In this document: positions 14,656 to 45,495 of the stretch, in pieces
Numbering within the stretch: the first letter of the stretch is position 1
How the letters are laid out: every line of letters begins with the position of its first letter
DNA from: an uncultured Nitrospina sp.
GTDB taxonomy: Bacteria > Nitrospinota > Nitrospinia > Nitrospinales > VA-1
Direction: 5' to 3'
Length of the DNA stretch: 64,000 nucleotides
NCBI GenBank assembly: GCA_937891765.1
Contig: CALAGQ010000001.1
Location: forward strand, 14,864-78,863
Position numbers and translations under genes: made by a program
The notes under the pieces: model-generated
Databases searched by the model: none
The model's input: only the letters and a program-made list of their open reading frames with translations
Told to the model about the DNA's origin: nothing

Positions 14656-14971
14656 TTTCAGATATCAGCTAGGTTTGTGGGTCTGTAAAAGAATTCAGTT
14701 TAAGGCCAGTAGAATTTTTTCATTATTCGCGGTTTTTAGTATCTGGTAGGGCTGGGTTCTGGGGCGTTCCATTCCGTCTCTTAAGCGGAGCACCTCTTTA
14801 AGGGTGAGGGGCCGGGCTCTCATTCTGGAACGCCCATCAGGGTAAAAAGAGAGGGTTTTCATTTTTTTTGCGGTCCATTGTTTATAGATACCATTTTTAG
14901 ATGCAAAATATCCCTCGAAGTCTTAAAAAATTAGAGAAGAATAATAAAATAATTTGAAAAAATTAAGGGGG

Positions 14972-15358: not shown

Positions 15359-15528
15359 GGTTTCTTGTCTGGTTTACAATAAAGCGGCTAATGGAACGTA
15401 TTATCTAGAAATAAACGATTTGCGATTAAGAGTCAAAGCTAATTGTGCCAATAATCGATATAAAATTTAACAACATACGGGGGTTATAAAAAAAATATTG
15501 GCAAGTCGGAGTGTTTTTTGGCTGGGGG

Positions 15529-17067: not shown

Positions 17068-17355
17068 TGAGTCCTTCCTGAACGATCAAAGATGTTTTAA
17101 AGGGTGTCTCTAATAATTCGACACCCTATGTCTGGCAATGAGTAAAGTAGAGAAACTATCCCAGCTTGGCCCGGAACGCAAGCCAGAACCGCCTATTTGC
17201 GAAAATTCTTTCAGGAAAACAAAGGGATGCGGGGCTCATGGGCTGTTTTGTGGAGAAAAGGGGCTTGGGATAAGGGCTATAATATAAAGAGACCCTTTGG
17301 TAAAGGGAAATTTTATGAGCCAGCCCGAAAGCAGGGCTTGCCTCTGGAAGCACCT

Positions 17356-22897: not shown

Positions 22898-24067
22898 ATG
22901 AAAAGACATCACGCAATAATTATATTCCTGATGGTTTTTGTCCTGCTCGGGTGCCCGCCGCCGCCCAAGGCCCGGAAAAAAATGCCGCGCATTTTTGCCC
23001 TGAGCTATTCCATGGAGGCGAGACGAGAACCTTCCTACCTCATTACTGATGATTTTAACCGCGACAAAGTTCCAGATTTGGTTGTGGCCAACAGCGGCGA
23101 TCATTCCTTTTCATTTTTTAAGGGAGTCGGTGACGGGACTTTCCTGGATCAGCGTGTTTTTCAGACCGGTAGAGATCCCATTTGTCTGGATTCGGGAGAT
23201 TACAATGATGACGGTTACACAGATGTCGCGGTGCTCAATTATGCCGACCAAACTATTGAAATATTTTTGAACACCCGACTGGGAAGCTTTCAGAAAACAG
23301 CCCAGCTTCTTAAGCCCGGCAAAATTCCCATCAACATGGCGTCCGGCGATTTTAATGGGGACGGAAAAATCGATCTGGTTGTCACCCTGCGTTTTTCAAA
23401 TGTGGCGATCATAATCGGAAAAGGCAATGGATTTTTTGACAAACCTTCTTCCATGGATGTTAAGGGTTCACCCACTGCAGTTGTGGTTGGCGATTACGAT
23501 AAGGATGGAAAAGCAGATGTCGCGGTGGCTTTGGCGGGTAACGGCAATAAAGGCGTTCAGGTTCTCTGGGGCAAAGGCGATGGAACATTTGAAGGTTCAA
23601 AAGCTTTTAAAGGCGGGAAGCAAGCGCTCTCTCTGGTCAGCTTGGATGTGAATAATGACGGGTTACTGGATTTTGTGACCTCCAGCAACTCTTTGCATTC
23701 CTTGACCACGCTTATAAATAATGGCGACAAAACCTTTAAGTCCTTAAAGGATTTTGCCTCGGGGAATTTCCCAAAATTTGTCGTGGCGGCCGATTTTACC
23801 GGCGATGGCTTGCAGGATATAGCCGTCTCCAATTCCACCGATGACATGATCAGTGTCTCTCTAGGCCGGGGAGACGGGACCTTCACCTATCCTCCTATCT
23901 ACCACCGGGTCGATGAACATCCGCAGGGCATGGCGGTGGCAGATTTTAATGGTGATGGTTTTCCGGACATTGCCGTCTCCAGCCGGGATAAAAATCTCAT
24001 CGACATCCTCAGTAAGAAAAACATGATCAACCCAAAACCCGACCTTCCAGAACCCAAATCCCCTTAA
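22898..24067 (+). CDS. FG-GAP/VCBS-repeat lipoprotein
   Basis: The start at ATG 22898 gives MKRHHAIIIFLMVFVLLGC (lipobox). About seven repeats of DFNxDGxxDL or GDYDKDGKADV type follow. Confidence 0.8.
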   Translation: MKRHHAIIIFLMVFVLLGCPPPPKARKKMPRIFALSYSMEARREPSYLITDDFNRDKVPDLVVANSGDHSFSFFKGVGDGTFLDQRVFQTGRDPICLDSGDYNDDGYTDVAVLNYADQTIEIFLNTRLGSFQKTAQLLKPGKIPINMASGDFNGDGKIDLVVTLRFSNVAIIIGKGNGFFDKPSSMDVKGSPTAVVVGDYDKDGKADVAVALAGNGNKGVQVLWGKGDGTFEGSKAFKGGKQALSLVSLDVNNDGLLDFVTSSNSLHSLTTLINNGDKTFKSLKDFASGNFPKFVVAADFTGDGLQDIAVSNSTDDMISVSLGRGDGTFTYPPIYHRVDEHPQGMAVADFNGDGFPDIAVSSRDKNLIDILSKKNMINPKPDLPEPKSP

Positions 24068-24701
24068 CCCCTGTGGTATCTTTTCGCTTTCCTTTACCCG
24101 TGCTGGGCATGAAATTTATGGTTGGAGATAGCAGGCATTCCCCGAAGGGGTAGATCCAGGGTTCTGGATTTATGCCTTTTTAAAAACGATGCTGATTGCT
24201 GAAAACTCTCTGACCAGATTCATTTGACGACATACAGATCTCGCAATTCATCTTCCGCAAAATCCAGCAACCTCACATAGTATCCCTTGTGGCATATTTC
24301 CTTGCGGGGATTTTTTGTGATGTTGGCTTTGATCCCGGTTTTTTCAAGGTTATTACTTTCGATTAGAAGCTTTCGTCGATTACTGTTCCCGTAGGCTTCT
24401 GTTTATGGAAACTCAAGTAAGGTAGATCTGTTTCGAATTCAGACCGAACCCACACACCTGAAATTCAAATCTCCTGTTGATTATGATCGAATAATTTTTG
24501 CATAAAAATAACGTACTTGTTGGCAGCTTCCAGAGCTGTGTCCATTTCCTCTATATTTTGAATCTGAACAAGCATGCTCATGAGCGAACTCCTTAATAAT
24601 CTGTTGACTCCTGAAATATATGTCGTGTATTCTGCTTCTTCTATTTGCCGGTGCGCAAGTTGAAATTTTAAATTTATTGCATTTCCCCATTAGGATTGAG
24701 A

Positions 24702-24995
24702 ATGAGCACAAGAAAAATGGCTACCACGTCATGGACTTTTTTGACGAATCATGCACATGTCTTGTTGTGCCTGGCCCAAAATCCATCTGAACGGATTCGA
24801 GATATAGCTGCGGAGGTTGGAATTACGGAACGCGCGGTTCAGCGTATTATCGTTGAGCTTGAAGCTGACAGGTATTTGGAGCACATTCGTGATGGGAGGA
24901 GGAATGTGTACAAGGTTCTTAGTCGCAAGCCTCTGCGGCATAGTGTTGAGAAGCATCGACAAGTACATGACCTGATTAAGCTAATTAAAAAATGA
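24702..24995 (+). CDS. winged-helix transcriptional regulator (MarR/ArsR-like HTH)
   Basis: 97 aa from ATG 24702 (AGGA 6 nt upstream). The HTH segment is IRDIAAEVGITERAVQRIIVELE, followed by a wing (GRRNVYKV). It lies 200 nt upstream of dabA on the same strand. Confidence 0.65.
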   Translation: MSTRKMATTSWTFLTNHAHVLLCLAQNPSERIRDIAAEVGITERAVQRIIVELEADRYLEHIRDGRRNVYKVLSRKPLRHSVEKHRQVHDLIKLIKK

Positions 24996-25196
24996 TTTGA
25001 ATCAGGTTGTAGTGCTGGTATATGACCATCCTCGATGAAGCTTGAAACAAACTTAACCAATTAATTAATCTTACAAAATAAGAGATACTTTTAATATGGA
25101 AAACAATGATTCGGATAATAAAAGCGAACTTAGCGAAGTGTTCTCATTTATGAGGAGTACGCTGAAGAACTCGATGCGATAGGTAAATCCTTCTAT

Positions 25197-28100
25197 ATGA
25201 ATACTATTTCAGTGAAGCCTCTTTCCCCAGAAGATCGTGATCGGATTCGGCAAATTGTATTGAACGCCAGTGAGCCAATTGCGCCGTTTTGGCCCATGCG
25301 GACTATGGTCGCGCAGAATCCCCTTCATGGATTGGAATATCTGCCGTTTGATCAGGCTGTTCGAAAAGGCAAGGACCTCCTTGGTGGAAATGGGTATCTT
25401 GCGAATGAGGAGTATCGTCAACTTTACCGAAATGGTCGTATTACCAAAGAAAGTTTTAAGCGAGCTTTTTCCAGGGTTGGGCCTCGCCCAGAGGGGCAGG
25501 TTCCTATTGAAGTTGGAAGTCGAAAGATTATCCCCAAAGATGTTTGGCAATTATACTTACTTTTTGGCTTCGAGGGATTGCCATTATCCCTCTTGGAATG
25601 GGAGTTGAGCGGTGGTGGAGCTATAAAACAGTTTCGGCAAGATCTCTCCGAGGAATCCCGAAAAAAAATTATTGAACAAACCATCAAAGAAGGTGAACAG
25701 TTTCGGGAAAATCCAGAAGAGGCCTACCTGATAAATTTATGGGAGAGTGTGTTAACCACCTTCGGGCTATCTGATTTTCATGCTTCATCTCAAATACCTG
25801 AGGATTCGCATTCGCAAACTTCTGCACCCATTTCCTTGTCGCCTCAACGGACCATTAGCGATTGGGTTGATGGTTTAACTGAGGGTGGGGTGGTCGACCA
25901 AATCAATAATCAACTCATCAAATGGGTGACGGCGTTTCTCGATGAAGGATTAGCCGGCTGGGAAATGCCTGGCCGAGAAGAAGGTTTCTACCATGTATGG
26001 CGGAACCTGGCGCAGAAAGATTTTTCGGGGCGGCTTCTCGGGATTACAGATTTCGCCCAAAAAGTTCATAGCCTTCCTGCAACTCCAGAGGAGACGATCC
26101 GTTCCAGCTTGTACCAACTCGAAATTCCTCAAGAACAATGGGAAAATTATCTCTCAAGGCAACTATCATTATTACCAGGCTGGACACGATACATACGGTG
26201 GCTCGGGGAACACCCAACATACCATGCGCAACAAAAACATCCCATTGACACCACACAATATCTGGCCGTCCGTTTATTTTATGAAGTGGAGTTGACCAAC
26301 ATTAAGTGCCATCAAGAATGGGGAATTGATGGGACCGTTTCTACCCTGACGGCATATTGGAATGATCGACCCGAAGAATACCACCAACAAATTGGGCATG
26401 GAGGTCAATCTGGGGATCCAACCAAACAGATGAAATGTCGACATGCTTGGCGATTATTCCACTTGGCACAGTTTCTTGAATTATCTCCAGGAGAAGTTCA
26501 TGATCTCTCGCTTACTGATGCCCAGATGTTGTTGCAATGGTTAGATCACTTTCCTGCTGATCAACATGGGCAGGTATGGATTGAGGCGTACGAAGATTCC
26601 TTTCGAGAGGAGATGCTAAGAAATATTTCAGCGCATCGCGGAACGGTACCAGAATTGGAAACTCATCCCCATGCACAACTAGTCTTTTGTATCGACGTAC
26701 GTTCTGAATCATTTCGTCGCCATATTGAAGCCCAGGGTTCCTATGAAACGTTTGGGTTTGCAGGGTTTTTTGGCATTCCCATTAGCCATCAAGCTTTTGA
26801 TAGTGATCAACGTGGCGATTTATGTCCGGTGTTATTGACTCCTAACCATGCGGTGACGGAAACACCTCGGTCGGGAGAAGGAGCGGCCTTAGAAAAATAT
26901 TTTTCTGGTACTCGCTGGCACCAACTGGGGCACCATCTTTTTCACGATCTGAAGCATCATCCTATTGGGTCGATGATGATGATTGATGTATTGGGGTTCT
27001 TTTTTAGTCTGGGGTTGGTGGGCAAAACCTTGTTCCAAAAAATATTTCGTGCAATGACCTCTACTATCCAGAGTGGGTTGACACATAGGGTTCCAACCCA
27101 GATTTCAATTTCGACGCCGCCTGATCCTCAAAATCCCAAAATCGGAGAAGTGAATGCAGAAGGGATTCCTGACGGGCTTGCTCAAGGATTTTCTCTTTCT
27201 GAGCGGGCGACATTTATTGAAAATAGTTTGCGTACTATGGGGCTCACCAAAAATTTTGCGCGGTTGGTGTGCCTCTGTGGCCATGGAAGTGAGACGGACA
27301 ACAATCCCTATTATGGGGCGTTAGATTGCGGGGCTTGCGGGGGAGCGCCGGGAGATGCAAATGCGCGAGTTTTTGCCACGATGGCCAATGAACCTGAAGT
27401 TCGTCGCATTCTCAAGGAAAAAGGATTGCCGATTCCTGATGACACCTGGTTTCTTCCGGGGAAACATAACACGACGACTGATCGGGTCGAGTTTTATGAT
27501 CTAGAGGAATTGCCTGATTCGCACAAAAAAGATTTGCAGGCGTTGAACAAGGGCCTTGAAGAAGCTGGTGCGAAGCAGGCTCTTGAGCGATGCCATCGTA
27601 TTCCCAGTGCTCCGACTGAAATTTCTCCAGAGCAGGCTTTTGTTCATGTAGATGAACGCAGTTGCGATTGGGCGAGTACTCGACCGGAATGGGGATTAGC
27701 GGGCAATGGAGCGTTTCTCATTGGAAGACGAAAACTAAGCAAAGGATTAGATTTAGGCGGTCGGTCTTTTTTGCATTCTTATGATCCTGTTGATGATCCC
27801 CAGGGAGCCATCCTCGAAAAAATCATGACGGCGCCATTAATTGTCGGCGAGTGGATTAGCACAGGCTATTATTTTTCTGCGGTTGATCCGTGGGCGTATG
27901 GAAGTGGAAGTAAGGTGTTACACAATGTCGTTGGAGGAGTTGGGATGATGCTCGGGACCCAAAGTGATCTGCAAATGGGATTCCCCCTGCAGACGATCAA
28001 TAACGGGGACACTCACTATCATGAGCCCATGAGACTCTTAGCTATCATCGAACAGACGCCAAGTGTAATCTCATCTATCATTCAAAAACACTCGATTCTT

Positions 28101-28211
28101 CAACAGTTGTTTCATAATCAATGGCTTAATCTTGTGGCCTTGGATCCCCATACATTTGAGTTTCATCGGTATAATTCGAATGCTACGTGGGAAACGGTTC
28201 TTGTCCCTTAA
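25197..28211 (+). CDS. dabA: DabA (DUF2309) - carbonic-anhydrase-like subunit of DAB-type inorganic carbon pumps
   Basis: 1004 aa. The N-terminal [22 protein letters not shown] is typical of DUF2309. The putative Zn ligands are conserved: C498/D500 in FCIDVRSE (nt 26688-26696) and H696/C711 in [23 protein letters not shown] (nt 27282-27329). Confidence 0.9.
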   Translation: [1004 protein letters not shown]

Positions 28212-28349
28212 TTAGACATACAATGGAAGATAGGCGCTTGGACTACTACAAGAATACGGATGCTTCATTCCAAGTTTCCGGCTGGTTTTTTTTATAGGAA
28301 AAGTCGAGTAAACTGATGCTTTTCGGTCAAACCCGTATCTAATAATTTT

Positions 28350-28856
28350 ATGGCAACTCGATCTAGACCCATTTCTTCAAGATTCCTGTTTTTAAAAGCC
28401 ATGGCACTGTTTGTGTTTTGGGTTTTGATTTCTGCAAGCTTTGAATGGATTCATCTTGGTTTGGGGCTTGTTTTTTCCTTCGCCGTGGCCTGGATCAACT
28501 CTGGCCATTCACTTTTTGTTCCGAAATTTCGTTTGTGGCTCAGAATCCTCCTTTACCTTCCATGGCTTTTTTATAAGATCATTGAAAGCAGCCTTTATTT
28601 GTCCAAGCTTATTTTGCATCCTGCGCTTCCCATTGATCCTCAGTTGGTTTCTGTGGATTCAAAACTGCGTCACCACGCAGCCGTTGTTCTTCTCGGTAAC
28701 TCCATTACGTTAACCCCTGGAACGATTACCGTAGAGGTTGACAGTAATAAACTCATTGTTCACGCAATGGATAAGGTTTTAAGCGAAGATATTGAAAGTA
28801 AGCAGATCGAATCTAAAATTGCTGATATATTTAAGGACGAGGAACCGGATCTATGA
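28350..28856 (+). CDS. mrpE: Mrp/Mnh antiporter subunit E
   Basis: 168 aa with two N-terminal TM helices. It contains the MnhE-like block NSITLTPGTITVEVD...LIVHAMD. Its stop overlaps the next start as ATGA. Confidence 0.75.
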   Translation: MATRSRPISSRFLFLKAMALFVFWVLISASFEWIHLGLGLVFSFAVAWINSGHSLFVPKFRLWLRILLYLPWLFYKIIESSLYLSKLILHPALPIDPQLVSVDSKLRHHAAVVLLGNSITLTPGTITVEVDSNKLIVHAMDKVLSEDIESKQIESKIADIFKDEEPDL

Positions 28857-29119
28857 CAACTTTCTTTTTCTACGTTATGGTGCTGTTGGCTATTCTCATT
28901 GGTGCTTATCTGTACCGTGTCTTGCAGGGTCCCACAATTTTTGATCGTGTGTTGGGTCTCAATGGTATTTCCACCAAGGCAATTATTTTGTTTATTGTCA
29001 TAGGAACTTATTCTGAACGAGTCAATATGTTTATTGACATCTCGACCGGGTATGCCCTGATAAATTTAGTCGGAGCGCTTGCCGTGGCCAAATATTTGGA
29101 ACAAAAGGGACTTCCTTAG
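28853..29119 (+). CDS. mrpF: Mrp/Mnh antiporter subunit F
   Basis: 88 aa with three TM helices and the MrpF-like block GPTIFDRVLGLNGISTK. Confidence 0.8.
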   Translation: MTTFFFYVMVLLAILIGAYLYRVLQGPTIFDRVLGLNGISTKAIILFIVIGTYSERVNMFIDISTGYALINLVGALAVAKYLEQKGLP

Positions 29120-29120
29120 C

Positions 29121-29420
29121 ATGGACATACTTTCCATCATTTTTATAGTAGCGGGCTTATTTTTTATGATTGTTGCTGCGATTGGTGTGGTTCGATTACC
29201 TGATGTGTTTAGCCGTTCTCATGCCGTATCATTAACAGACTCCTTAGGTGCCTTTTTGATGTTAGTTGGAATCGCCTTCCATGAGGGGCTGGGTAAAAAT
29301 ACACTGAAAATTCTAGTGGTGTTGGCCTTGTTGTATATTCTAAATCCAGTCATTGCACATGCCACGATTCGCGCGGCTTTCCGGTCTGGTGTAAAACCTT
29401 GGCAAAAGAAATCCTCATGA
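29121..29420 (+). CDS. mrpG: Mrp/Mnh antiporter subunit G
   Basis: The start at ATG 29121 is 1 nt after the mrpF stop. The block AAIGVVRLPDVFSRSHAVSLTDSLG matches the MnhG signature (RLPD..R.HA). Confidence 0.8.
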   Translation: MDILSIIFIVAGLFFMIVAAIGVVRLPDVFSRSHAVSLTDSLGAFLMLVGIAFHEGLGKNTLKILVVLALLYILNPVIAHATIRAAFRSGVKPWQKKSS

Positions 29421-29947
29421 TCTTTCCATTTGAAATTCCTTTACTCCTTCTCCTGCTTGTTACCGCCGCCGGTGCCATCCTGGTTAAGGATTTGATGAGT
29501 GCCGTTCTACTCTTGGGCACTTACAGTTTTTTCCTGTCGTTGGTATGGGGATGGTTTGGAGCAGTAGATGTCGCCTTCGTGGAAGCCGTCGTAGGAGCAG
29601 GATTAGGTACGGTTTTGTTTCTATTAACTCTATTTGGTACTGCTCCCAAAGACACTCGGCTTCATCGTCCTCCTCCTTCTCTGTTAACGTTAATTGTTTT
29701 TCCCCTCTTGGGGTTTCTTTTGCTCTATGCCGCGAGCGATCTTCCTGAATTTAGGGACCCGAGTTCTCCAGCAAGTGTTCATATTTCGCCGACCTATCTT
29801 GAGCAGAGTTATCAGGATACCCACACTCCGAATGTTGTCACTGCGGTACTGATGGACTATCGATCGCTTGATACGATGGTCGAAACCGTAGTGATTTTTG
29901 CGGCGGGCATTGCTTGTATTTTACTGCTTAGGAGGCAAGTAAAATGA
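29417..29947 (+). CDS. DUF4040/MrpA-C-terminal-like plus MnhB-N-terminal-like membrane subunit (MbhD/E-like)
   Basis: The start at ATG 29417 overlaps the mrpG stop as ATGA. The GAVDVAFVEAVVGAGLGTVLF and NVVTAVLMDYRSLDTMVETVV blocks are typical of the MnhB/DUF4040 region. Confidence 0.7.
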   Translation: MIFPFEIPLLLLLLVTAAGAILVKDLMSAVLLLGTYSFFLSLVWGWFGAVDVAFVEAVVGAGLGTVLFLLTLFGTAPKDTRLHRPPPSLLTLIVFPLLGFLLLYAASDLPEFRDPSSPASVHISPTYLEQSYQDTHTPNVVTAVLMDYRSLDTMVETVVIFAAGIACILLLRRQVK

Positions 29948-30396
29948 TACGCCAACACGACAGTATTATCGTACATACCTTAGGGCGCTTTGTTATCCCG
30001 GTGGTCCAAATTTTTGGTTTATATGTGTTGTTTTTTGGGCAATACGGACCAGGCGGAGGCTTTGTGGGTGGGGTGATTCTAGGTTCGAGTATGATTTTAT
30101 CGGTCTTGATTTTTGGTCATGACGCTTCCCGGAGTCAAATTGTCAAAAAGGCTTTGCATGCTGATGGGGTAGGGCTGCTGATCTTCGCGGGTGTAGGTGG
30201 CTTGTGTATGATTGGAGGAGGAGAGTTTCTCAATTATGCAAATTTGGAAATTCCAGGTTTGGAAACTGCTTCTCGAAGATCTTTGGGGATCGTACTCACG
30301 CAAATCGGTGTGGCAGTAGATGTTGCGGTAACAGCCATTTCTATTGTGTTCAGTTTGTCTGCTGAAGAAATTATCGAGGATTCAATAAATGGTTGA
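29944..30396 (+). CDS. mrpB: Mrp/Mnh antiporter subunit B
   Basis: 150 aa with a GPGGGFVGG block and four TM helices. It overlaps its neighbour as ATGA. Confidence 0.7.
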   Translation: MIRQHDSIIVHTLGRFVIPVVQIFGLYVLFFGQYGPGGGFVGGVILGSSMILSVLIFGHDASRSQIVKKALHADGVGLLIFAGVGGLCMIGGGEFLNYANLEIPGLETASRRSLGIVLTQIGVAVDVAVTAISIVFSLSAEEIIEDSING

Positions 30397-30766
30397 TGCA
30401 TTTTTAGCAGTTTTTCATCGACCCAATTTTTTGACATTTGTCATCCTTTTTCTGTGGGGCTTTTATGTCATGGTTACGCGATACAATCTCGTAAAGAAAC
30501 TCATCGGGATGTATTTGGTGCAAACCAGCGTGATTTTTTTCCTAGTATCTATTAGCGTGAAGAAGGGCGCGACTGTTCCCGTGCTCTTGTCAATCACGGA
30601 GCCGGTGCAAGCGGCCAGCTATGCGAATCCGTTACCTCATGCACTGACGCTGACTGCTATTGTGGTTGGCGTGGCGACCACCGGCGTGGGTTTAGCCCTG
30701 TGCGGGGCAATCTATCGAAAATATGGAAGCCTTGACGAACAAGAAATTCTTGGAAAATTAGAATGA
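30389..30766 (+). CDS. mrpC: Mrp/Mnh antiporter subunit C (NuoK-like)
   Basis: 125 aa with three TM helices and the NuoK/MnhC-like block RYNLVKKLIGMYLVQTSVIFFLV. It overlaps mrpB by 8 nt. Confidence 0.75.
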   Translation: MVDAFLAVFHRPNFLTFVILFLWGFYVMVTRYNLVKKLIGMYLVQTSVIFFLVSISVKKGATVPVLLSITEPVQAASYANPLPHALTLTAIVVGVATTGVGLALCGAIYRKYGSLDEQEILGKLE

Positions 30767-32232
30767 GTCACCAACTTCCCGCAATCCTATTTCTTCTCCC
30801 ATTGTTTGCAGCTATTTCCATGCCAGTGGTTTGTCTAAAACACCATCACTGGAGCCAGTCAATTTCTGTGGCAACTCTCTCGGCTATGGTGCTGGTCTCT
30901 ATTTTGAATCTCCATAACGTCATTCATCATGGAGAAGTGCGGTATGTGTTTGGTGGGTGGGCTGTGTCCCTCGGCATTGAGTGGGTGGCTGATGGATTAG
31001 CAAGTGTCATCTTAGTGTTAATGAGTGCCTTATGTTTACTGGGTGTAATATTTACTGGACCCGCCTCCCCAAAGAATCTAGGTGGCCGAATCGTTCATTT
31101 TCACACGTTGATTTTATTATTGATGTCCTCTTTGACCGGCATTGTTTTCGCCGGGGATTTTTTCAATCTGTTCGTGTTTTTAGAAGTTGCAGCCATCTCG
31201 AGTTATGCGCTTATTGGTGCAGCTGGAGGGAGAGCGTTGTTTGCAGCCTTTCGCTATCTTATATTGGGAACCATTGGTGCCTCCCTTTTTCTTTTAGGGA
31301 TGAGTTATCTCTATGCGGTGACGGGCACACTGAATATGTCTGATATGGCCGACAAACTTCCTTTGTTGCTAAGCTCTAAAGCTCTAGTAGGTGGACTGCT
31401 TTTTTTGTTTATTGGTTTGGGGATCAAGATGGCCTTAGTCCCGTTTCATTCTTGGTTGCCCGAAGCCTATACTTATGCTCCTGATTCCATTTCCCCTATC
31501 CTAGCTTCACTCGTCACCAAAGTAGCGCTATTGGTGTGGATCAGAATACTCTATTGGGTCTTTAATGCGTCAAATATCATTAATGATATTCCGATTTTGC
31601 TACTGGTGGAAGTTGTTGGAGCATTAGCGGCGGTCATAGGCGCAAGTCTGGCCTTGGCTCAGCGGGATCTTAAAACGATGTTCGCTTATGGAGGGATTTC
31701 GCACATCGGCATCATTCTCATTGGAATCAGTCAAGGCAACCCCACCGGGTTTGTCGGAGGGGTTTTTTATTTATTGAATGATTCCGTTATGCAAGCGGGC
31801 TTGTTTTTTTTAGCAGGCGTCGCGTTTTGTCAGTATGGGGTCAGAGCTATTGATGACATAGGGCGTGTTGGGAAAGAAGCACCCTGGCTCACTGGGTCTT
31901 TAATTATTATGGCCTTCGGCATGATTGGCCTGCCTCCGACGGGTGGTTTTTTTGGCAAATGGTACATCATTCTTGGAGCGTTAGAAGCGGGCAATTATGT
32001 TTCGGTCGCTGCGGTGGTGCTCTCCACGCTCTTGACGCTTGCCTACTTCATTAAACTGTTTGAGGGCATTTTTCACCAAACATCAACTCGATTGGACGTT
32101 CAGTTTGGTGAAATTCCCCTCTCATTTAAACTGACTCTGGGAGTTACGTCCGTAGCTATCATTATTCTTGGTTTATTCAGTTCTCCCATTATTCAACTGT
32201 TGTTGAATCACGCTCTGCCACCAACTCTTTGA
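30763..32232 (+). CDS. mrpD: Mrp subunit D / NuoN-M-like antiporter-like subunit
   Basis: 489 aa and polytopic. It has proton-conducting-transporter blocks (FLEVAAISSYALI, GIKMALVPFHSWLPEAYTYAP, DLKTMFAYGGISHIG). It overlaps mrpC as ATGA. Confidence 0.85.
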   Translation: MSHQLPAILFLLPLFAAISMPVVCLKHHHWSQSISVATLSAMVLVSILNLHNVIHHGEVRYVFGGWAVSLGIEWVADGLASVILVLMSALCLLGVIFTGPASPKNLGGRIVHFHTLILLLMSSLTGIVFAGDFFNLFVFLEVAAISSYALIGAAGGRALFAAFRYLILGTIGASLFLLGMSYLYAVTGTLNMSDMADKLPLLLSSKALVGGLLFLFIGLGIKMALVPFHSWLPEAYTYAPDSISPILASLVTKVALLVWIRILYWVFNASNIINDIPILLLVEVVGALAAVIGASLALAQRDLKTMFAYGGISHIGIILIGISQGNPTGFVGGVFYLLNDSVMQAGLFFLAGVAFCQYGVRAIDDIGRVGKEAPWLTGSLIIMAFGMIGLPPTGGFFGKWYIILGALEAGNYVSVAAVVLSTLLTLAYFIKLFEGIFHQTSTRLDVQFGEIPLSFKLTLGVTSVAIIILGLFSSPIIQLLLNHALPPTL

Positions 32233-32240
32233 GAGGAATT

Positions 32241-34421
32241 ATGGCTCTTTTCGTCCTCATTCCCTTGCTTCCCTTTTTGGCTTCTCTCATTCTTCTGCTT
32301 GGGGGACGTCGTTGGGGTGAGAACGGTCACCGAATTGGGATTCCTGCCATCGGTATCTCTTTTGGGTTATCAGTTGCCGCTTTCATTGAAGTGTGGAGAA
32401 ATGGACCATTTACTGTTTCTCTTTATCGCCTCTTTCAATCTGGTTCCTTAACCATTGATTTAACTCTGTTCGTTGACCAACTGACGGTTTTGCTTTTGCT
32501 CTTGGTTACAGGAGTAAGTGGGGTTGTGCATGTGTATTCCTCTCGTTACATGATAGGAGAGTCCCGATATAATCGTTTTTTTGCCGTCATTGCCTTGTTT
32601 ACTTTTTCTATGATTTTGTTGGTCATGAGTGGCAATCTTTTGATGACGTTGATTAGCTGGGAAGTCATGGGGATCTGTTCCTATCTGCTAATTTCTCACG
32701 CAGCAGAACGTCCTTCAGCTTGCAGGGCGGCCACCAAAGCTTTTCTCGTTAACGCAGTCGCGGATGTCTGGTTCAGTTTTGGCATCATTCTAACCTTTTT
32801 CACCTTTGGTACACTCGATATCCAGACTATTCTTCTTCAGGCTGAAGGTATGCAGGACTACACCATCAATATCTTAGGGTGGATGGGCTTGGATCTTAAT
32901 ATCTATCCTGTGGCGCTTATTCCCTTCTTCCTCTTTATAGGGGCTATGGGAAAATCAGCACAAATACCATTTCACGTTTGGTTACCCGGGGCGATGGAAG
33001 CTCCGACTCCGGTCTCGGCGCTTATTCATGCGGCTACTATGGTGAATGCGGGTCCGTTTTTGTTAGTGCGCTTGAGTCCGTTGATTGTCCTTTCTCCCTA
33101 CGCCATGACTTTCATTGTCATTATTGGTGCCACTACCGCGGTATTTGCTGGGATAGTTTCCTTGACTCAATCGGACATCAAAAAGATTTTGGCCTATTCC
33201 ACAATTAGTCAAATCGGATTCATGGTTATGGCCTGTGGTTTGGGCGCGTTTGCAGTTGCAATTTTCCATCTTCTTGCCCATGGGTGCTACAAAGCGTTCT
33301 TTTTTCTATCTACTGGCAATGCGTTGCGATCAGTGGAACAGGGACTTGGGCATGGTGACCATGAACACCATGTCTCTGAGGGCATGGGGATCTTATATGG
33401 CGGGGCCTTGTTGTTGGCGTTAATCCCGCCGTTAGTTCTGTTCTCAGGATCATATGAATATTTGTGGGGGGTCACGGGGTTTGCTTCTGCAGCGATCGGA
33501 TTCAAAATCATTGGCTTGATTACAGTATTTGTGACTTCTCAATATCTTTTTAAAAACGTCACTTCGCTTTTTGCTCACGATCCAAAGACGTACTGGCTCG
33601 CTTCAGGACAAAATAGTTTGGAGAAACAATCTGTACGACGCCAGTTCTTAAATGGCTCCATTTTAACTGGTCTTTTTCTAACTACGGTTTTTGCAGGTGG
33701 GCTCTTGACTCTGTTTTGGAGTTGGTTCGCCAACTTTCTTGCACCGGCTTTGACCCTTCCAGGGGTCAAGTTAGCTGAAGGTACAGTCGAGCGCGGCTTT
33801 CCTTTTTGGCTTGTTGTTTCTCTTGGCGTGGCAGTGGCGGGGTGGGTCTATGCATACTCCACACAGGTACGATCTCAACATCAGATATCCAGAACAAATG
33901 GGAGAAGCAATCGATTGTATGTCTTTTTTTGGAATAAAGGATACTTTGATGAAATCTATGATGTCTATCTGGTAACCCCAACCATTAAGTTCGCACACTG
34001 GCTGTGGCGAACTATTGATATAAGGGGTATAGATCATTTCATCCATTCTATCGCGACTTATTCTGTGTGTTTTGCCGGGTGGCTGTGGCGAATTATTGAT
34101 ATAAGGGTGATAGATCATTTCATCCATTCTATCGCGACTTATTCTGTGTGTTTTGCCGGGTGGCTGTGGCGAATTATTGATATAAGGGTGATAGATCATT
34201 TCATCCATTTTTTCGCGGCTAATTCTGTTTATTTTTCCCGGTGGTTATGGCGAACGGTTGATATTAATTGGTTGGAGCGGAAAGTGGGGCATGCAGCAGA
34301 AAAAATTAATGATTCGGGGCAATTACTGAAAGAAATTGAACCCCGTACCATCCAACATCAGTTATTTGTAATGATATTTTGGTTAGTTGCGATGACTTTT
34401 CTATTGTATAACATGCTTTAA
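32241..34421 (+). CDS. NuoL/MrpA-N-terminal-like antiporter-like subunit (DabB-type candidate) with an expanded lateral-helix region
   Basis: ATG 32241 is preferred (GAGAGGA Shine-Dalgarno) over TTG 32229. NuoL hallmarks are present: WEVMGICSYLLISH, GAMGKSAQIPFHVWLPGAMEAPTPVSALIHAATMVNAG, DIKKILAYSTISQIGFM and YFDEIYDVYLVTP. The C-terminal region contains the 27-aa tandem repeat. Confidence 0.85.
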   Translation: MALFVLIPLLPFLASLILLLGGRRWGENGHRIGIPAIGISFGLSVAAFIEVWRNGPFTVSLYRLFQSGSLTIDLTLFVDQLTVLLLLLVTGVSGVVHVYSSRYMIGESRYNRFFAVIALFTFSMILLVMSGNLLMTLISWEVMGICSYLLISHAAERPSACRAATKAFLVNAVADVWFSFGIILTFFTFGTLDIQTILLQAEGMQDYTINILGWMGLDLNIYPVALIPFFLFIGAMGKSAQIPFHVWLPGAMEAPTPVSALIHAATMVNAGPFLLVRLSPLIVLSPYAMTFIVIIGATTAVFAGIVSLTQSDIKKILAYSTISQIGFMVMACGLGAFAVAIFHLLAHGCYKAFFFLSTGNALRSVEQGLGHGDHEHHVSEGMGILYGGALLLALIPPLVLFSGSYEYLWGVTGFASAAIGFKIIGLITVFVTSQYLFKNVTSLFAHDPKTYWLASGQNSLEKQSVRRQFLNGSILTGLFLTTVFAGGLLTLFWSWFANFLAPALTLPGVKLAEGTVERGFPFWLVVSLGVAVAGWVYAYSTQVRSQHQISRTNGRSNRLYVFFWNKGYFDEIYDVYLVTPTIKFAHWLWRTIDIRGIDHFIHSIATYSVCFAGWLWRIIDIRVIDHFIHSIATYSVCFAGWLWRIIDIRVIDHFIHFFAANSVYFSRWLWRTVDINWLERKVGHAAEKINDSGQLLKEIEPRTIQHQLFVMIFWLVAMTFLLYNML
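33999..34268 (+). repeat. 81-bp (27-codon) in-frame tandem repeat, about 3.4 copies, inside the NuoL-like gene
   Basis: Unit starts (tggctgtggcgaa...) fall at 33999, 34080, 34161 and 34242. By hand alignment, copies 1 and 2 differ at 3 of 81 nt. Copies 2 and 3 are identical for 45 nt and then differ at 8 positions. Copy 4 is partial. Confidence 0.95.
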
Positions 34422-34549
34422 TGAGTTACCGACTTGTATTCCTAAATTTATAAAAAATGGGTCTGGTTGAAAATGGCCTTACGTCATTTTTCTTGTGCTA
34501 ACTTGAAAAGCAAGGAGTTTACTGCTTTCGTGGGACGGAGATTTTTTAA

Positions 34550-36019
34550 ATGGCTCTATTGATGGATCATCTGATTAGCTGGATGATTGTCGTTCCTTTT
34601 TTAGGAATCGTCATTCTGGCATTTTTGCGTGATGAAGAATCGATTCGACGAATTGCCCTTGGCATCACAATGGTGGAGGTTCTCCTTTCGCTGATACTCT
34701 GGAGGAGTTTCGATTCCACTTTGCAAGGCATGCAGTTCGTGGAGCGCTTGGAATGGATGCCCACGTTTAATATTCAGTATGCGGTTGGTGTTGATGGTAT
34801 TAGTATTCTTATGGTGATACTCACAGCCCTTCTTTGTCCACTCTGTGTCCTTTGTTCGTGGACGGGAATTACAACACGAGTACGAGCCTATCTCTCGCTG
34901 ATCTTGTTAGTTGAAGGTGCCATGATTGTGGTCTTTACCGCCCTGGACCTTTTCCTGTTTTTCATGTTGTGGGAACTTACAATGATTCCCATGTATTTCA
35001 TGATTATTCTCTGGGGTGGGCCGAATCGTATTGCTGCTGGGCTTAAATTCGTTTTGTATAGTCTAACAGGAAGCTTACTGCTACTGGTGGGAATATTGGG
35101 TGTTTATCTTAATGGGGGACATACCTACGATCTTTTGGTGTTAACTGAACAAACTTATTCTTCCAGCACGCAATTCTGGTTATTCTTGGCGTTCTTTCTG
35201 GCTTTTGCTATAAAAATGCCAATGGTTCCCTTTCATACGTGGCTCCCTGACGCCCACTCCGAAGCTCCTACGGCTGGCAGCGTGATTTTGGCTGGAGTGC
35301 TCTTGAAAATGGGAGGATATGGGTTTTTGCGTTTTTGTTTACCTATGTTTCCAGAGGCTTCGGTGAATTTCGCCCCATATATTTTGTGGTTGTCGGTTAC
35401 AGCCATTATCTATGGTGGGTATATGGCCTTGGCACAGTCTGATCTTAAAAAGCTCATAGCCTATTCTTCAGTTTCCCACATGGGTTTTGTTACTCTCGGA
35501 ATTTTTGTGTTCAATAGCCAAGGTATCCAAGGCGCTGTCTTGCAAATGTTTAATCACGGGATTACTACTGCAGCCTTATTTATTTGTGTTGGACAATTGT
35601 ACGAGCGCACTCACAGTCGAGCGATTTCCGACTACGGCGGCTTGCATAATTCCATGCCAAGATTTGTCACATTGTTCTTTTTGTTTTCAGTCGCCGGCTT
35701 TGGGCTACCAGGCACCTGTAATTTCATTGGTGAATTTTTGGTCTTAGTCGGAGTTTCCTATGTCAACTTTGCCATGGTTCTTATCTCTATGGGAGGTATT
35801 GTTTTAGCTGCTGCATATATGTTGTGGATGCTCCAAAGGGTGGCGTTGGGAGAACCATCGACAGAAGCCGCCAAAGTGCTCCCTGATATATCGAATCGGG
35901 AATTGGCTACGCTGATTCCATTGGCTATCCTCGTATTGTGTATTGGATTGTATCCCGGACCATTGATGGAAGTGATGAATGCGAGTGTGATTCACCTCAT
36001 CCAATCTGGCGTAAATTAA
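34550..36019 (+). CDS. NuoM/MrpD-like antiporter-like subunit
   Basis: 489 aa. NuoM hallmarks are present: FFMLWELTMIPMYFMI, AFAIKMPMVPFHTWLPDAHSEAPTAGSVILAGVLLKMGGYGFLRF and DLKKLIAYSSVSHMGF. Confidence 0.85.
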   Translation: MALLMDHLISWMIVVPFLGIVILAFLRDEESIRRIALGITMVEVLLSLILWRSFDSTLQGMQFVERLEWMPTFNIQYAVGVDGISILMVILTALLCPLCVLCSWTGITTRVRAYLSLILLVEGAMIVVFTALDLFLFFMLWELTMIPMYFMIILWGGPNRIAAGLKFVLYSLTGSLLLLVGILGVYLNGGHTYDLLVLTEQTYSSSTQFWLFLAFFLAFAIKMPMVPFHTWLPDAHSEAPTAGSVILAGVLLKMGGYGFLRFCLPMFPEASVNFAPYILWLSVTAIIYGGYMALAQSDLKKLIAYSSVSHMGFVTLGIFVFNSQGIQGAVLQMFNHGITTAALFICVGQLYERTHSRAISDYGGLHNSMPRFVTLFFLFSVAGFGLPGTCNFIGEFLVLVGVSYVNFAMVLISMGGIVLAAAYMLWMLQRVALGEPSTEAAKVLPDISNRELATLIPLAILVLCIGLYPGPLMEVMNASVIHLIQSGVN

Positions 36020-36111
36020 AATTTGCCTCATAAATATAAGATCTTGCCGTAAGACTTGAGGATTGGAAGTTAATAAGAATCGCTAGCTCCTCCCCAAAGT
36101 TTGATGATTTA

Positions 36112-36300
36112 ATGGAAAATATAAATACAAAATTAGTGGTAGCGGCCATTCCGCTTAGAGAACGGGCGCATCTGTCACTGGTTCTTTTAAGCAATGAGCT
36201 GGATAGCGATGAACTGGACTACGATATGGCAGACGATGATTCAGTTTATCCCCAGATAATTGAGTGGTACCGGAAAAGGTTCCCGGGTGAAAGAATTTAA
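36112..36300 (+). CDS. small acidic hypothetical protein
   Basis: 62-aa ORF with no Shine-Dalgarno and no family. It sits in the AT-rich region. Confidence 0.2.
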   Translation: MENINTKLVVAAIPLRERAHLSLVLLSNELDSDELDYDMADDDSVYPQIIEWYRKRFPGERI

Positions 36301-36859
36301 GCTGTAAAAAAGTAAATTAAAATTTAGTAATTTTCTTTGCAATAAGTAGATAAGTCATTTAAATCCTAAAAATTCCCCATAAAAAAAGGCCGCTCATGAC
36401 AGAGCGACCTTAAAATATTTTTCTCCATAGCCTTCCCGTTTCCACAGGAAGCATTCTCGAAAAGGCTAAGAATTAAATAAATTTTGTGCATAGCAAAGTC
36501 ACTTTCCAAAATGTCTTAGAAAATAGAGGGCTAGAATTTTGACAGTTGCTATAAACTATTGATTTGTTGAGAAAGTGAAGAGGCTACTTGGTGGTTGTAG
36601 TTTTTCTCTCACGCCGTTACCCAATTATTTCTATGAAACCAATTCAAAAGAGTACAGATCACTTGATTTTTTGTCTCTCTTGATTGCAATCAAGTGAGCG
36701 ACTGTAGCCAAAACTGTAGCCAATTATTTCAGAATTAGTAGGACAATAGGGTGAAATACCGAAATTTCACTGATTGGAAAGGAAGCTGACAACGACCAAG
36801 ATAACGCTTTATCAATAGTTTATAAAAGTTGATAAAATTTAGAGGAAAACTCCTGACAG

Positions 36860-36905
36860 GAATGGCATTCAAGAGGTCAGGGGTTCGATCCCCCTCAGCT
36901 CCACT
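36860..36905 (+). repeat. tmRNA/tRNA-Ala-type 3'-end-like element (intact T-arm plus CAGCTCCA acceptor strand), direct-repeat copy 1 (att-like)
   Basis: The sequence is gaatggcattcaagaggtc-AGGGG-TTCGATC-CCCCT-CAGCTCC-A-ct. The T-stem is a perfect 5 bp with a TTCGATC loop. The acceptor 3' strand is identical to that of E. coli tmRNA. A strong terminator follows. I found no matching 5' acceptor strand (GGGGCTG) upstream. Confidence 0.5.
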
Positions 36906-36917
36906 TAGATATGAAAA

Positions 36918-36949
36918 GGGTTAACTCGAAAGGGTTGACCCCTTTTTTT
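36918..36949 (+). terminator. intrinsic terminator
   Basis: gggttaac (36918-36925) pairs with gttgaccc (36934-36941), with one G-U pair and an 8-nt loop. A T7 run follows at 36943-36949. Confidence 0.75.
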
Positions 36950-37008
36950 GTGGATTGTATGGTAAATGTATAGTGGGGTTTAATTGAGTTGAGAAAGATT
37001 TAAATTGA

Positions 37009-37197
37009 GCTACAACTTACTGGGGCAGGTTAATCCCACGCGATGATTCGCAGACCGTTTTGGAATGGACTTACAATCCACCCATTTCTCCCTGGCTCTC
37101 GGTGCAACCTGATATTCAATACCTGATAAATCCGGGAACCAACCCAACGATAGACAATGCTCTGCAACTTGGTTTTAAATTTGAGACTGTATTTTAA
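37009..37197 (+). pseudogene. C-terminal fragment of an OprB-like (carbohydrate-selective) porin gene
   Basis: The frame is open only from 37009 and has no start codon. It reads ATTYWGRLIPRDDSQTVLEWTYNPPISPWLSVQPDIQYLINPGTNPTIDNALQLGFKFETVF*. The QPDxQYxxNPG...F terminus recalls the OprB family. Confidence 0.4.
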
Positions 37198-37310
37198 TTG
37201 GTTTTAATTATTAGATACTCTATATGAGACTAAATTTTCTTGCCATTTATAATGAAGTAATTTTGATTTCATTAGAACCAGAATTTTTATTAAATAGCTA
37301 GAGGGATCCA

Positions 37311-40300: not shown

Positions 40301-40433
40301 AAATTTAGCAGAGTTAGGTCAGAATAGCGAAGTCCCAGGGCAATTAGTCGAACACTTAAAACAATTGTTGGGGAAATACGATATGGAGGCGATTCTCAAA
40401 GTATTGGAAAGCGTGTCCAAAACCAAGGCTTAA
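37311..40433 (+). CDS. hybrid sensor histidine kinase/response regulator (TM - GAF - PAS - HisKA - HATPase - REC)
   Basis: 1040 aa. It has an H-box (MSHEIRTPMNAI), an N-box (LLGNAVKFT), G-boxes (DSGKGIP, GGTGLGLAIS) and a receiver domain (KALVVDDVKENR...DIVFMDLRMPVMGG...SKPF). A GAF-like and a PAS-like segment precede the H-box. Confidence 0.9.
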   Translation: MFEREKSVLKATPDGQPKVSRKKNRLHLLYFLMAAFDLLTISGSLYLNHEIMQIYNNSLKSNEVWAARQAYFSYLGEIASSVNAPGNDIFETRNTSYEKKRLDKAMALFEKKYKKGEQDISQNIPPSESKDLLREMKIVQSAVYDMSESTIDIFKHFDLKDMITAGKNMAIMDRHYYLVTTHLALLASKIRTIQKLNFDEQVKIANQFKKYEYLIGGFILLMVCLALFYGNMIFKRFLEKEIEKNEDLDKIKQVSNALQHNQLLKDIAIISNQAKRQNEATQKCIDLICETIKWPVGHFYLVDKNSNRLTSTEIWHMENAEKFKVFKEVTEKTSFDIGVGLPGRVWGSGEPAWIVDITQDLNFPRAKIAVEIGVRGAFAFPIMVDKEIIAVMEFYSTLREEPNESLLDIMSSIGVQMGRVFERKQAENKLLDAHNNLESLVKMRTGELNFQKMAIDEHAIVSITDIKGNINYANDKFCHISGYSRDELMGKNHRILKSEEHPPEFYENMWKTISSGKPWHGDIKNKNKSEGHYWVRTTIIPNLNYDGKPFQYIGIRTEITESKNLEKQLILSKEEAEKANQAKSLFLANMSHEIRTPMNAILGFSQILLRKKDLDKDTKDALGTIDTSGKNLLAMINEILDISKIEAGKMKLNISDFDLKHLVDHLSKLFELRCQQKALEWNITEFANSVLVRGDEIKLQQTLVNLLGNAVKFTDSGKVELAVTPLDNNQFKFDVIDSGKGIPLEAQDKIFDAFQQDDQGEKKGGTGLGLAISKKQLELMGSDLLLKSEINKGAHFYFTLTLPPAEKEVLEDRGEKYRYVTHLAPECKVKALVVDDVKENRDVLAKLLSSIGVEIIEAENGQVAVEKVKEHLPDIVFMDLRMPVMGGEDATKLIIGEFGSDRIKIVAITASAFDRRRGYYIEMGFHEYISKPFKTEEIFKGLNELLGVEYVYDDDEISQEESSSIKELDLTRISIPEDLYERMMKSAESYSVTELERNLAELGQNSEVPGQLVEHLKQLLGKYDMEAILKVLESVSKTKA

Positions 40434-45482: not shown

Positions 45483-45495
45483 GAGGAATAAAAAA

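Follow-up and report, generated by a model that had tools for sequence, protein, structure and literature searches.

DAB/Mps systems are a widespread means of inorganic-carbon uptake. The way in which ion flow is coupled to the one-way hydration of CO2 is still debated, as is the identity of the ion, H+ or Na+. They have been described as two-gene or three-gene systems. Here we analyse a dabA gene of an uncultured Nitrospina sp. that stands in a much larger setting: within a 64,000-nucleotide (nt) stretch of contig CALAGQ010000001.1, the whole of which we call the window, it opens a run of ten consecutive + strand genes that ends with a nuoM-like gene (25197-36019; open reading frame (ORF) listing, Pfam, NCBIfam). 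We lean towards the view that the ten genes encode one complex, a DAB-type vectorial CO2 hydratase in which the membrane partner DabB is replaced by a whole Mrp/Mbh-like arm.

In DAB2 of Halothiobacillus neapolitanus (9rd0), the structure paper describes a Zn bound by Cys2His plus water, with an Asp-Arg dyad that places the water. Both in DAB2 and in DAB1 of Thermocrinis albus, a DabA-DabB-DabC system, a hairpin of DabA is wedged into DabB, and DabA therefore needs a membrane partner. The DAB1 paper adds that DabA E704 and D708 bond DabB H328 and R331, which lie on short cytosolic helices absent from NuoL.

Related antiporter arms occur in other complexes. In cyanobacterial NDH-1MS and NDH-1MS', CupA and CupB hydrate CO2 on an NdhF3/D3 or F4/D4 antiporter arm; neither is known to belong to the DabA family (CupA sequences were outside the comparison). 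The lateral helix of Mbh is contributed by MbhI, a subunit of its own. CupA and CupB are thought to be redox-driven via the electron-transfer module of NDH-1. In solved Mrp antiporters the lateral helix ties the pump modules to the C-terminal domain, and in 2M complex I (Nitrospira) and Complex_I_3 (Manganitrophaceae) a lateral-helix insertion of 26 amino acids (aa) accompanies each extra pump subunit.

Results

A ten-gene cluster headed by dabA

The ten genes, with Pfam matches that are all above the gathering score, are as follows.

25197-28211, + strand: dabA, beta-carbonic-anhydrase-like catalytic subunit, 1004 aa (PF10070, 877 bits, residues 23-977)
28350-28856, + strand: mrpE, 168 aa (PF01899, MNHE, 112 bits; same position in all cluster loci)
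28853-29119, + strand: mrpF, 88 aa (PF04066, 48 bits; aligned to 7qru_F and 6cfw_B)
29121-29420, + strand: mrpG, 99 aa (PF03334, MnhG, 78 bits; TIGR01300, 80.5 bits, cut-off 63)
29417-29947, + strand: DUF4040 protein, free MrpA C-terminal domain (MrpA'), 176 aa (PF13244, MbhD, 58 bits; PF20501, MbhE, 37 bits)
29944-30396, + strand: mrpB, 150 aa (PF04039, MnhB, 79 bits)
30389-30766, + strand: mrpC, NuoK-like, 125 aa (PF00420, Oxidored_q2, 81 bits)
30763-32232, + strand: mrpD, antiporter-like pump module 1, 489 aa (PF00361)
32241-34421, + strand: NuoL-like, pump module 2, 726 aa (PF00662 and PF00361; TIGR01974, 458 bits, cut-off 407.5)
34550-36019, + strand: NuoM-like, pump module 3, 489 aa (PF00361; TIGR01972, 619 bits, cut-off 264)

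An earlier note on this DNA, made from the letters alone, had placed ten ORFs on this strand at these coordinates and proposed a profile-based annotation. The ORF listing agrees with it, the profile hidden Markov models assign all ten ORFs to the expected families, and the three PF00361 antiporter-like subunits that it named score 191, 191 and 271 bits. The DUF4040 protein also passes NF009159 (163 bits, cut-off 141), and no NCBIfam model matches DabA. Recomputed spacings reproduce the junctions of the note exactly: dabA to mrpE 138 nt, E to F -4, F to G +1, G to A' -4, A' to B -4, B to C -8, C to D -4, D to nuoL +8 and nuoL to nuoM +128. In the mechanical ORF list three genes open at an upstream TTG (29079, 29399, 32229); the ATG starts preferred by the note (29121, 29417, 32241) match independent gene calls on identical contigs as well as homologues.

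The note had also found no hydrogenase, NuoB/C/D/H/I or ferredoxin-module genes, and this holds for the 40 window ORFs scanned with Pfam, which include most of those of at least 150 aa; the same ORFs contain no Q-module and no NuoA/H/J/N. No NiFe-hydrogenase-like or NuoB/C/D/H/I-like module was seen in the scanned flanks of five related loci. Among the scanned window ORFs, the only PF00662/PF00361 NuoL-type protein is the cluster's own, and no DabB-type gene adjoins dabA. Named homologues of DabA and the NuoL-like protein, at 72-100% identity, come from Nitrospinaceae, Nitrospina and Ca. Nitronauta, which assigns the window to a nitrite oxidiser of Nitrospina type.

Conservation of the dabA-mrp linkage

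Diverse DabA representatives were aligned, one genome per GTDB species was scanned, and 79 loci were annotated with the window proteins. They fall into two contexts, the classical dabB-dabA pair and the full cluster dabA-mrpE-F-G-A'-B-C-D-nuoL-nuoM, with or without a preceding sulP. Order and strand of the cluster recur in 29 genome loci, some clipped by contig ends, from six phyla: Nitrospinota, Nitrospirota, Acidobacteriota, Binatia, Pseudomonadota (alpha and gamma) and Planctomycetota. The carriers are named as Nitrospina, Nitrospinaceae, Nitrospira, Nitrospirales, Nitrospirota, Bryobacterales, Acidobacteria, Terriglobia, Binatia, Arenicellaceae, Gammaproteobacteria, Pseudomonadota, Rhodospirillaceae and Phycisphaerae. 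Conserved synteny in related genomes, which had been set as a test of the linkage, therefore extends far beyond them.

The genes are also tightly packed. The dabA stop and the mrpE start overlap by 4 nt in L031, L054, L056, L063, L064 and L075, which predicts translational coupling of the two genes in these other phyla. In most lineages a SulP family transporter gene comes first in the operon (two of the three scanned examples include a STAS domain). Of the 20 loci in which both genes were called, 13 have sulP and dabA spaced by -1 to +43 nt. In a neighbour-joining tree of 71 DabAs, the Mrp-linked proteins form one clade, apart from the pair-type clades, and the ten proteins diverge in parallel (identity to the Rhodospirillaceae proteins is 54% for DabA, 68% for the MrpA C-terminal protein and 67% for NuoM).

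The converse test started from the other end of the linkage, with an alignment of MrpA C-terminal proteins from six lineages as bait on metagenome contigs; it covers the close family of this module, as the best 80 of 195 relatives. Wherever at least 1.5 kb lies upstream of the bait, dabA stands upstream of mrpE on the same strand (40/40 loci). Seven shorter contigs carry the 3' end of dabA and 33 end too early to tell, so that none of the 40 judgeable loci among these 80 is a counter-example with the MrpA C-terminal module and no dabA. By these comparisons, the genes have been passed on together, as one unit, in the six phyla.

Two other arrangements were seen. The sister group of the Mrp-linked clade includes L011 (Methylococcaceae), where positions 9881-18375 carry dabA-nuoL-nuoM-nuoM with a divergent sulP and no small Mrp subunits, and where NuoL has two of the lateral-helix units described below; it may be an intermediate or a reduced form. 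In the Nitrospirales loci L004, L005, L007, L046 and L069, a split cluster-type dabA and mrp fragments lie on the minus strand at about 1400-6500 beside an intact dabB-dabA pair, and they look like decaying copies of the Mrp-linked system. Sponge-derived genomes of lineage IVb have been reported to lack Mnh genes.

DabA keeps the catalytic site and loses the DabB contact

DabA aligns with the solved DabA2 chain 9rd0_A at E = 1e-111, active-site motifs included: C498, D500, R502, H696 and C711 fall on C351, D353, R355, H524 and C539. Cys498 (26688-26690, TGT), Asp500 (26694-26696), His696 (27282-27284) and Cys711 (27327-27329) lie at the codons to which they had been mapped. All four had been called Zn ligands; the residues are indeed present, but the ligands are Cys2His and water, and the Asp is not one of them. 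Arg502 is an additional active-site residue. The Zn-site residues are invariant in the alignment of 29 cluster-type and 39 pair-type DabAs. A hydrophobic segment at residues 589-613 carries an acidic residue in the motif ..MMMID597VLGFFFS.., and Asp597 would be the counterpart of DabA2 Glu444, by motif position rather than by structural alignment. As read off the alignment without a tally, this hairpin acid is Asp in the window and in most cluster-type DabAs and Glu (..VMVE..) in most pair-type ones. The Zn site is intact, and the window DabA is predicted to hydrate CO2.

The contact with the membrane partner differs on both sides. Position 706 of the window DabA corresponds to the T. albus residue that bonds DabB H328/R331; it is Glu in 33/39 pair-type DabAs (NNP[YF]E[SA]ALDC) and in 0/29 cluster-type ones, which have Tyr, Phe, Ala or Ser instead. 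On the other side, an 'IHxAR' motif that follows transmembrane helix (TM) 11 in most DabBs is absent from the cluster NuoL-like proteins, and the TM5 Glu, which is Gln, His or Leu in DabBs, is kept as 'WE' in 24/24 of them. The only NuoL-type gene of the window lies 4 kb 3' of dabA and encodes 726 aa, unlike a DabB-type partner of about 550 aa adjoining dabA. That both contact sides have changed together argues against an unlinked DabB as the partner, and the loss of the contact residues on both sides speaks against a usual DAB pair that just happens to lie beside a usual Mrp antiporter; it also means that the docking surface cannot be read from the DAB structures.

In sum of parts, the locus shares with DAB2 and with MpsAB of Staphylococcus aureus the Zn site, the Asp-Arg dyad, an acidic hairpin and a NuoL-type subunit. 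Unlike them, it has no DabB-type partner; its NuoL-like protein is longer, with the TM5 Glu retained and an extended lateral helix; and its DabA, with Asp for Glu in the hairpin and no contacting Glu, is accompanied by eight further membrane subunits.

A hybrid membrane arm with three pump modules

Alignment matches the DUF4040 protein to about residues 606-761 (7d3u) and to 638-797 (7qru) of MrpA, and also to MbhD/E and MbsD/E. By these alignments it is MrpA's C-terminal domain encoded on its own, and the NuoL-like protein stands in for the N-terminal domain, so that all MrpA-G families are co-encoded (E, F, G, the A C-terminal domain, B, C, D and a NuoL-type protein for the A N-terminal domain). 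The two antiporter-like subunits that the note had regarded as extra consequently differ in status: NuoM is supernumerary relative to canonical Mrp, whereas the NuoL-like protein fills the N-terminal slot of a split MrpA.

A search of the PDB separates the three pump modules. The NuoL-like protein matches complex I NuoL best (up to 276 bits, with DabB2 at 137 and MrpA at 131), the best solved match of the NuoM-like protein is complex I NuoM (441 bits), and the nearest solved relatives of MrpD are MbsH, MrpD and MbhH, about equally (165-174 bits). The arm thus reads as a hybrid, in which an Mrp/Mbh small-subunit module and MrpD are followed by a complex-I-type NuoL and one supernumerary NuoM. 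Relay residues are E141, K222, K253 and K399 in MrpD (conserved in 26-28/28), E142, K222, K253 and E395 in the NuoM-like protein (22-23/23), and E141, K238, H347 and K351 in the NuoL-like protein (invariant or nearly so in the family). All three modules thus retain the Glu/Lys relay, and pumping itself is predicted. TM12 of the NuoL-like protein carries Y405-E406, where complex I NuoL presumably has Lys-Asp (no complex I sequence was aligned there), and the protein ends in a long lateral helix and a C-terminal anchor helix.

We rejected the idea that nuoL and nuoM are displaced complex I genes: the nuo operons of Nitrospina gracilis (nuoA-M, and nuoN) are complete and lie elsewhere, which means that the cluster genes are not strays, and the pair travels with mrp in six phyla.

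Set beside DAB1, the locus likewise extends a DAB along an antiporter chain, with DabC there in the NuoM-helix position beside NuoL. Unlike the NuoM here, which is full-length with four relay residues, DabC is half-sized, hydrophobic at the relay positions and thought to be structural, and in our locus MrpD and a complete small-subunit module continue beyond NuoM. Compared with Mrp (CPA3; 7qru, 6z16, 7d3u), the seven subunit families and the MrpD relay are shared, but MrpA is split, its N-terminal half being a complex-I-type NuoL encoded after mrpD, an extra NuoM is present, the order is E-F-G-A'-B-C-D-L-M, and dabA accompanies the module in all the judgeable contigs. The arm order of Mbh and Mbs/Mbx (6cfw, 6u8y), in which MrpE-F-G, MbhD/E and MrpB, C and D correspond to MbhA-H, had been recognised in the note and is confirmed by gene order and PDB matches; the small subunits score against Mbh/Mbs as well as against Mrp. 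As in Mbh, an Mrp module would serve a peripheral catalytic module. Unlike Mbh/Mbs, the locus has no hydrogenase or NuoB/C/D/H/I-like module, its lateral helix is part of a full NuoL and not an MbhI, and its peripheral enzyme would be carbonic-anhydrase-like.

Small subunits along the proposed Na+ path

The small subunits were compared with the residues proposed for Na+ transfer in Bacillus pseudofirmus Mrp. In MrpA', D51, E56, D147, D152 and E156 are invariant in the family, and the counterparts of MrpA D678, D771, D776 and E780 are kept in the free C-terminal protein, which is 68-74% identical across phyla (six lineages). The gate Phe of MrpB is also kept (F40, equal to B. pseudofirmus Phe41 in the alignment to 7qru_B), as is the Asp-Arg pair of MrpF (D31-R32, equal to Asp32-Arg33). 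Four further positions are changed and are weighed in the Discussion.

A tandem repeat in the NuoL lateral helix

33999-34254, + strand: 81-bp tandem repeat in nuoL (Tandem Repeats Finder, 3.2 copies, 92% matches)

In translation the repeat encodes 27-aa lateral-helix units, WLWRxIDIRxIDHFIHSIATYSVCFAG, and on a contig with an identical DabA the NuoL-like protein is one unit shorter (699 vs 726 aa). Measured from the YFDEIY motif to the C-terminus, the helix region is about 88 aa in Paracoccus NuoL and 105, 116, 132, 160 or about 187 aa across the family, that is, 2-5 units in steps of 27 aa. Among 120 Nitrospinaceae-type representatives, 24 have 105-106 aa, 93 have 128-133 aa and 3 have 154-159 aa, the class to which the N. 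gracilis isolate belongs. Recent tandem duplication gave rise to these units. On the assumption of a continuous helix, its amphipathic phase turns by about 180 degrees from unit to unit, which suggests that the helix is broken between units. An AlphaFold2 model of the NuoL-like protein, built with 38 close homologues aligned, was unusable for the course of the helix (mean predicted local distance difference test score 43, predicted template modelling score 0.37).

As in 2M complex I and Complex_I_3, the lateral helix is lengthened, there by 26 aa and here by 27-aa units. Unlike in 2M complex I, the number of units ranges from 2 to 5 at the same gene content, and one unit per pump subunit was for this reason rejected as an explanation.

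The dabA-mrpE gap

28212-28349, + strand: 138-nt gap between dabA and mrpE (weak hairpin, T-run, TATAGGAA motif)

In alignment and folding, the gaps of L044, L051, L043 and L060 share with it the weak hairpin, a stretch of 5-8 T and bases resembling TATAGGAA; these features are conserved in Nitrospinaceae and in some related Nitrospirales. A promoter and terminator scan of 24000-37400 gave nothing in the gap, and it returned fewer promoter-like sites than shuffled sequences did, which makes it uninformative. Rfam has no match in this gap or in 34422-34549.

Discussion

In this study, we compared a ten-gene locus of a Nitrospina relative with the described DAB systems and with the antiporter arms of Mrp, Mbh and complex I. 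The earlier note had suggested that DabA may dock onto a full multi-subunit antiporter, and synteny, tree and converse test support this to the extent that the gene set is conserved and inherited together and the contacts between partners have been remodelled. A single DAB-type vectorial CO2 hydratase, with DabB replaced by the whole arm, is the reading that we hold to be somewhat the more probable; physical docking, the coupling to Na+ or to H+ and the need for the small subunits are what we infer within it. In a single complex of this kind, DabA would be seated on the NuoL-like end, the NuoL-like protein being the presumed equivalent of DabB. NuoM would occupy the place taken by the half-sized DabC of DAB1, MrpD and the small-subunit module would continue the chain, and the lateral helix of NuoL would strap it together. 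Cations passing down their gradient through the arm would cause conformational and electrostatic changes at the buried site of DabA, which would gate the entry of CO2 and the release of bicarbonate and a proton, so that diffusing CO2 is trapped as cytoplasmic HCO3-. If the ions run in the direction of Mrp, H+ would enter via the three pump modules and Na+ would leave via the small-subunit module, and where SulP heads the operon the extruded Na+ could also feed Na+/HCO3- symport.

The same gene set can be described as a redox-free relative of complex I, in which DabA, on a full Mrp-type arm of three pump modules and a possible Na+ path, takes the place of the hydrogenase or quinone module and Na+/H+ exchange drives or is coupled to CO2 hydration. 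The architecture of the arm would then be determined, or mirrored, by the number of 27-aa units. We regard this description as evenly balanced between right and wrong. As in NDH-1MS with CupA, a CO2-hydrating peripheral protein would sit on a complex-I-type arm with dedicated NuoL and NuoM types, a likeness of concept. Since genes for NuoB/C/D/H/I are absent here, the drive would have to be an ion gradient, unlike in NDH-1MS.

Several observations weigh against the one-complex view. Unlike in Mrp, four proposed Na+-path residues are changed: the counterpart of MrpA E687 is Gly, with an invariant Glu four residues (one turn) earlier; MrpB has Gln33 where B. pseudofirmus has His34; the counterpart of MrpB D121 is Ser or Tyr; and MrpF has Asn37 where B. 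pseudofirmus has Asp38. Na+ translocation is therefore not to be assumed. The NuoL-like protein does not resemble DabB more than it does NuoL of complex I (137 vs 276 bits), and it is without the DabB contact motif. Its lateral helix extends 1-4 units beyond the span of NuoM and MrpD and varies in length among close relatives, which is unexplained. The T-run/TATAGG element in the dabA-mrpE gap is a possible terminator, attenuator or separate internal mrp promoter, and in some Nitrospirales the gap measures 457-1900 nt. In Nitrospira marina the tabulated genes of the cluster (mrpB-G, nuoL, nuoM) went undetected in 6/6 proteome samples, and other NuoL/M proteins were detected; this silence would fit, weakly, a co-regulated and conditionally expressed unit. 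Assembly and inorganic-carbon uptake are predictions from the genes.

Next in strength is the possibility, which we think unlikely, that the operon encodes two machines that do not touch: a DAB1-like trimer of DabA, NuoL and NuoM, and a separate one-pump Na+/H+ antiporter of MrpE-F-G-A'-B-C-D. Mbh, for its part, operates with a single antiporter-like subunit, as such an antiporter would. Co-expression would then serve a shared ion cycle, with Na+ extruded for a SulP/BicA-type Na+/HCO3- symport and the pH balanced for the proton of hydration, and Mrp or NhaB genes do cluster with bicA for a Na+ cycle in cyanobacteria and Nitrospira. DAB1 is already a DabA/DabB/DabC trimer, the dabA-nuoL-nuoM-nuoM locus of L011 has no small Mrp subunits and so indicates that a DabA/L/M unit can exist alone, and L065 has its nuoL-nuoM pair in the opposite orientation to the remaining genes. 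Yet an Mrp part deprived of the NuoL-like protein has neither an MrpA N-terminal domain nor a lateral helix, and no MbhI-type gene is present here to supply one. The gene arrangement also speaks for a joint machine: in 20/24 loci a mere 5-45 nt separate the stop of mrpD from the start of nuoL, dabA adjoins mrpE and not nuoL, and small-subunit modules of this type come with dabA in 40/40 cases. Finally, the lateral helix of NuoL is longer than that of complex I, where a shorter one would be expected if it spanned NuoM alone.

The complex might also exist as proposed and serve another end, namely acidification, Na+ extrusion or membrane potential in saline or alkaline life rather than carbon concentration. 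DabA would then provide protons and buffering bicarbonate from metabolic CO2, as first proposed for S. aureus MpsAB. Carriers of the cluster, many of them heterotrophs, include Bryobacterales and other Acidobacteriota, Binatia, Phycisphaerae and Rhodospirillaceae. MpsAB, too, is reported to serve heterotrophs, and in Nitrospirales the mrp-nuoLM genes are found mostly in marine lineage IV and in haloalkalitolerant strains, where they have been read as an adaptation to salinity and pH. Against this, DAB/Mps systems are reported to rescue carbonic-anhydrase-free E. coli by supplying bicarbonate (the DAB1 and DAB2 structure papers, PMC6689103), which makes bicarbonate supply the demonstrated output of those systems; Nitrospina and Nitrospira are autotrophs that use the reverse tricarboxylic acid cycle; and most lineages have a gene for a SulP family transporter at the head of the operon. 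We rate this purpose as improbable, and as a statement about physiological role it is in any case compatible with the single-complex model.

A fortuitous meeting of an ordinary Mrp antiporter with a DabA that uses an unlinked DabB elsewhere, for which the 138-nt gap in the window and the constant annotation of the Mrp part as an antiporter on its own could be cited, is very improbable and, as far as comparative genomics allows, is refuted by the six-phylum synteny, the 4-nt overlaps, the monophyletic DabA clade, the 40/40 converse test and the missing DabB-contacting Glu of cluster-type DabAs.

Part of this architecture has been seen before. Papers on Nitrospira annotate mrpE-F-G-A-B-C-D with nuoL/nuoM-like genes as a group-3 Mrp that confers tolerance of salt and alkali (the annotated order from mrpE to nuoM is identical in NSPALKALI_v1_30027-30035 and NMARINA_v1_3866-3858) and leave the gene upstream of mrpE unmentioned; the Nitrospirales loci of this order that we retrieved all have dabA upstream. 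COGNAT noted that ybcC (dabA) lies upstream of nuoL and that genes for NuoM and SulP are close by. Full-text searches, with subscription-only papers outside their reach, found no link of DabA/DUF2309 to Mrp genes. The belief that the architecture was undescribed consequently stands, within the searchable papers, for the link to DabA, but not for the mrp-nuoL-nuoM part.

A natural DabA linked to an entire Mrp arm, whose three pump modules are intact and whose Na+-path module is modified, offers a new handle on the question of ion coupling, and it joins three fields: Mrp antiporters, the evolution of complex I and carbon-concentrating mechanisms. The cluster read as a salt/pH antiporter in Nitrospira genome papers gets re-annotated, which bears on carbon acquisition by marine Nitrospira and by Nitrospina, the latter described as the major marine nitrite oxidiser. 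If the description as a redox-free relative of complex I is true, this would be the first Mrp antiporter with a non-redox catalytic peripheral arm and the chemotroph counterpart of cyanobacterial CupA/NDH-1MS. It also adds one more candidate to the compact CO2-uptake modules sought for carbon-fixation engineering.

Neighbouring genes

24696-24995, + strand: small winged-helix helix-turn-helix (HTH) protein, 99 aa (weak Pfam HTH matches)

Besides this HTH protein, the flanks of the cluster carry genes for FG-GAP, hybrid histidine kinase, PFK-type, SulP/STAS transporter and Usp proteins. Homologues of the HTH protein (92-94 bits) lie divergently upstream of dabB-dabA pairs in L050, L058 and L080 (Solirubrobacterales, Conexibacteraceae and Chloroflexia, of the phyla Actinobacteriota and Chloroflexota); it may be a regulator of the locus, from a DAB-associated regulator family. 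A PAS/GAF histidine kinase often lies just 3' of dabA or of the cluster, as in L014-L016, L023, L024, L027 and L028 (Nitrospira pairs), in L075 and in the window (37311-40433). We did not count the kinase as part of the system, the similarity being that of generic kinase domains.

Directly after nuoM, gene calls on identical contigs place a 62-aa ORF (36112-36300, + strand), which Pfam does not match and which the more distant cluster loci lack. The AT-rich 1.3-kb gap after nuoM also holds a weak transfer-messenger RNA (tmRNA)-like Rfam match (36782-36906, + strand; 18.7 bits, gathering 47, E = 4e-4), followed on its 3' side by a terminator-like hairpin (36918-36941). ARAGORN, run on the whole window, found no tmRNA or tRNA, and the match is probably not a real ssrA.

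Farther downstream, a 793-aa protein (40933-43314, + strand) fuses His_Phos_1 and PFK domains, a combination uncommon in bacteria. A SulP/STAS transporter and a tandem-Usp protein follow at 43992-46350 (+ strand), 8 kb 3' of the cluster. This SulP is only distantly related (74-97 bits) to the operon-heading SulP of other phyla, and the same SulP/STAS and Usp pair adjoins the cluster in Nitrospinaceae L051.

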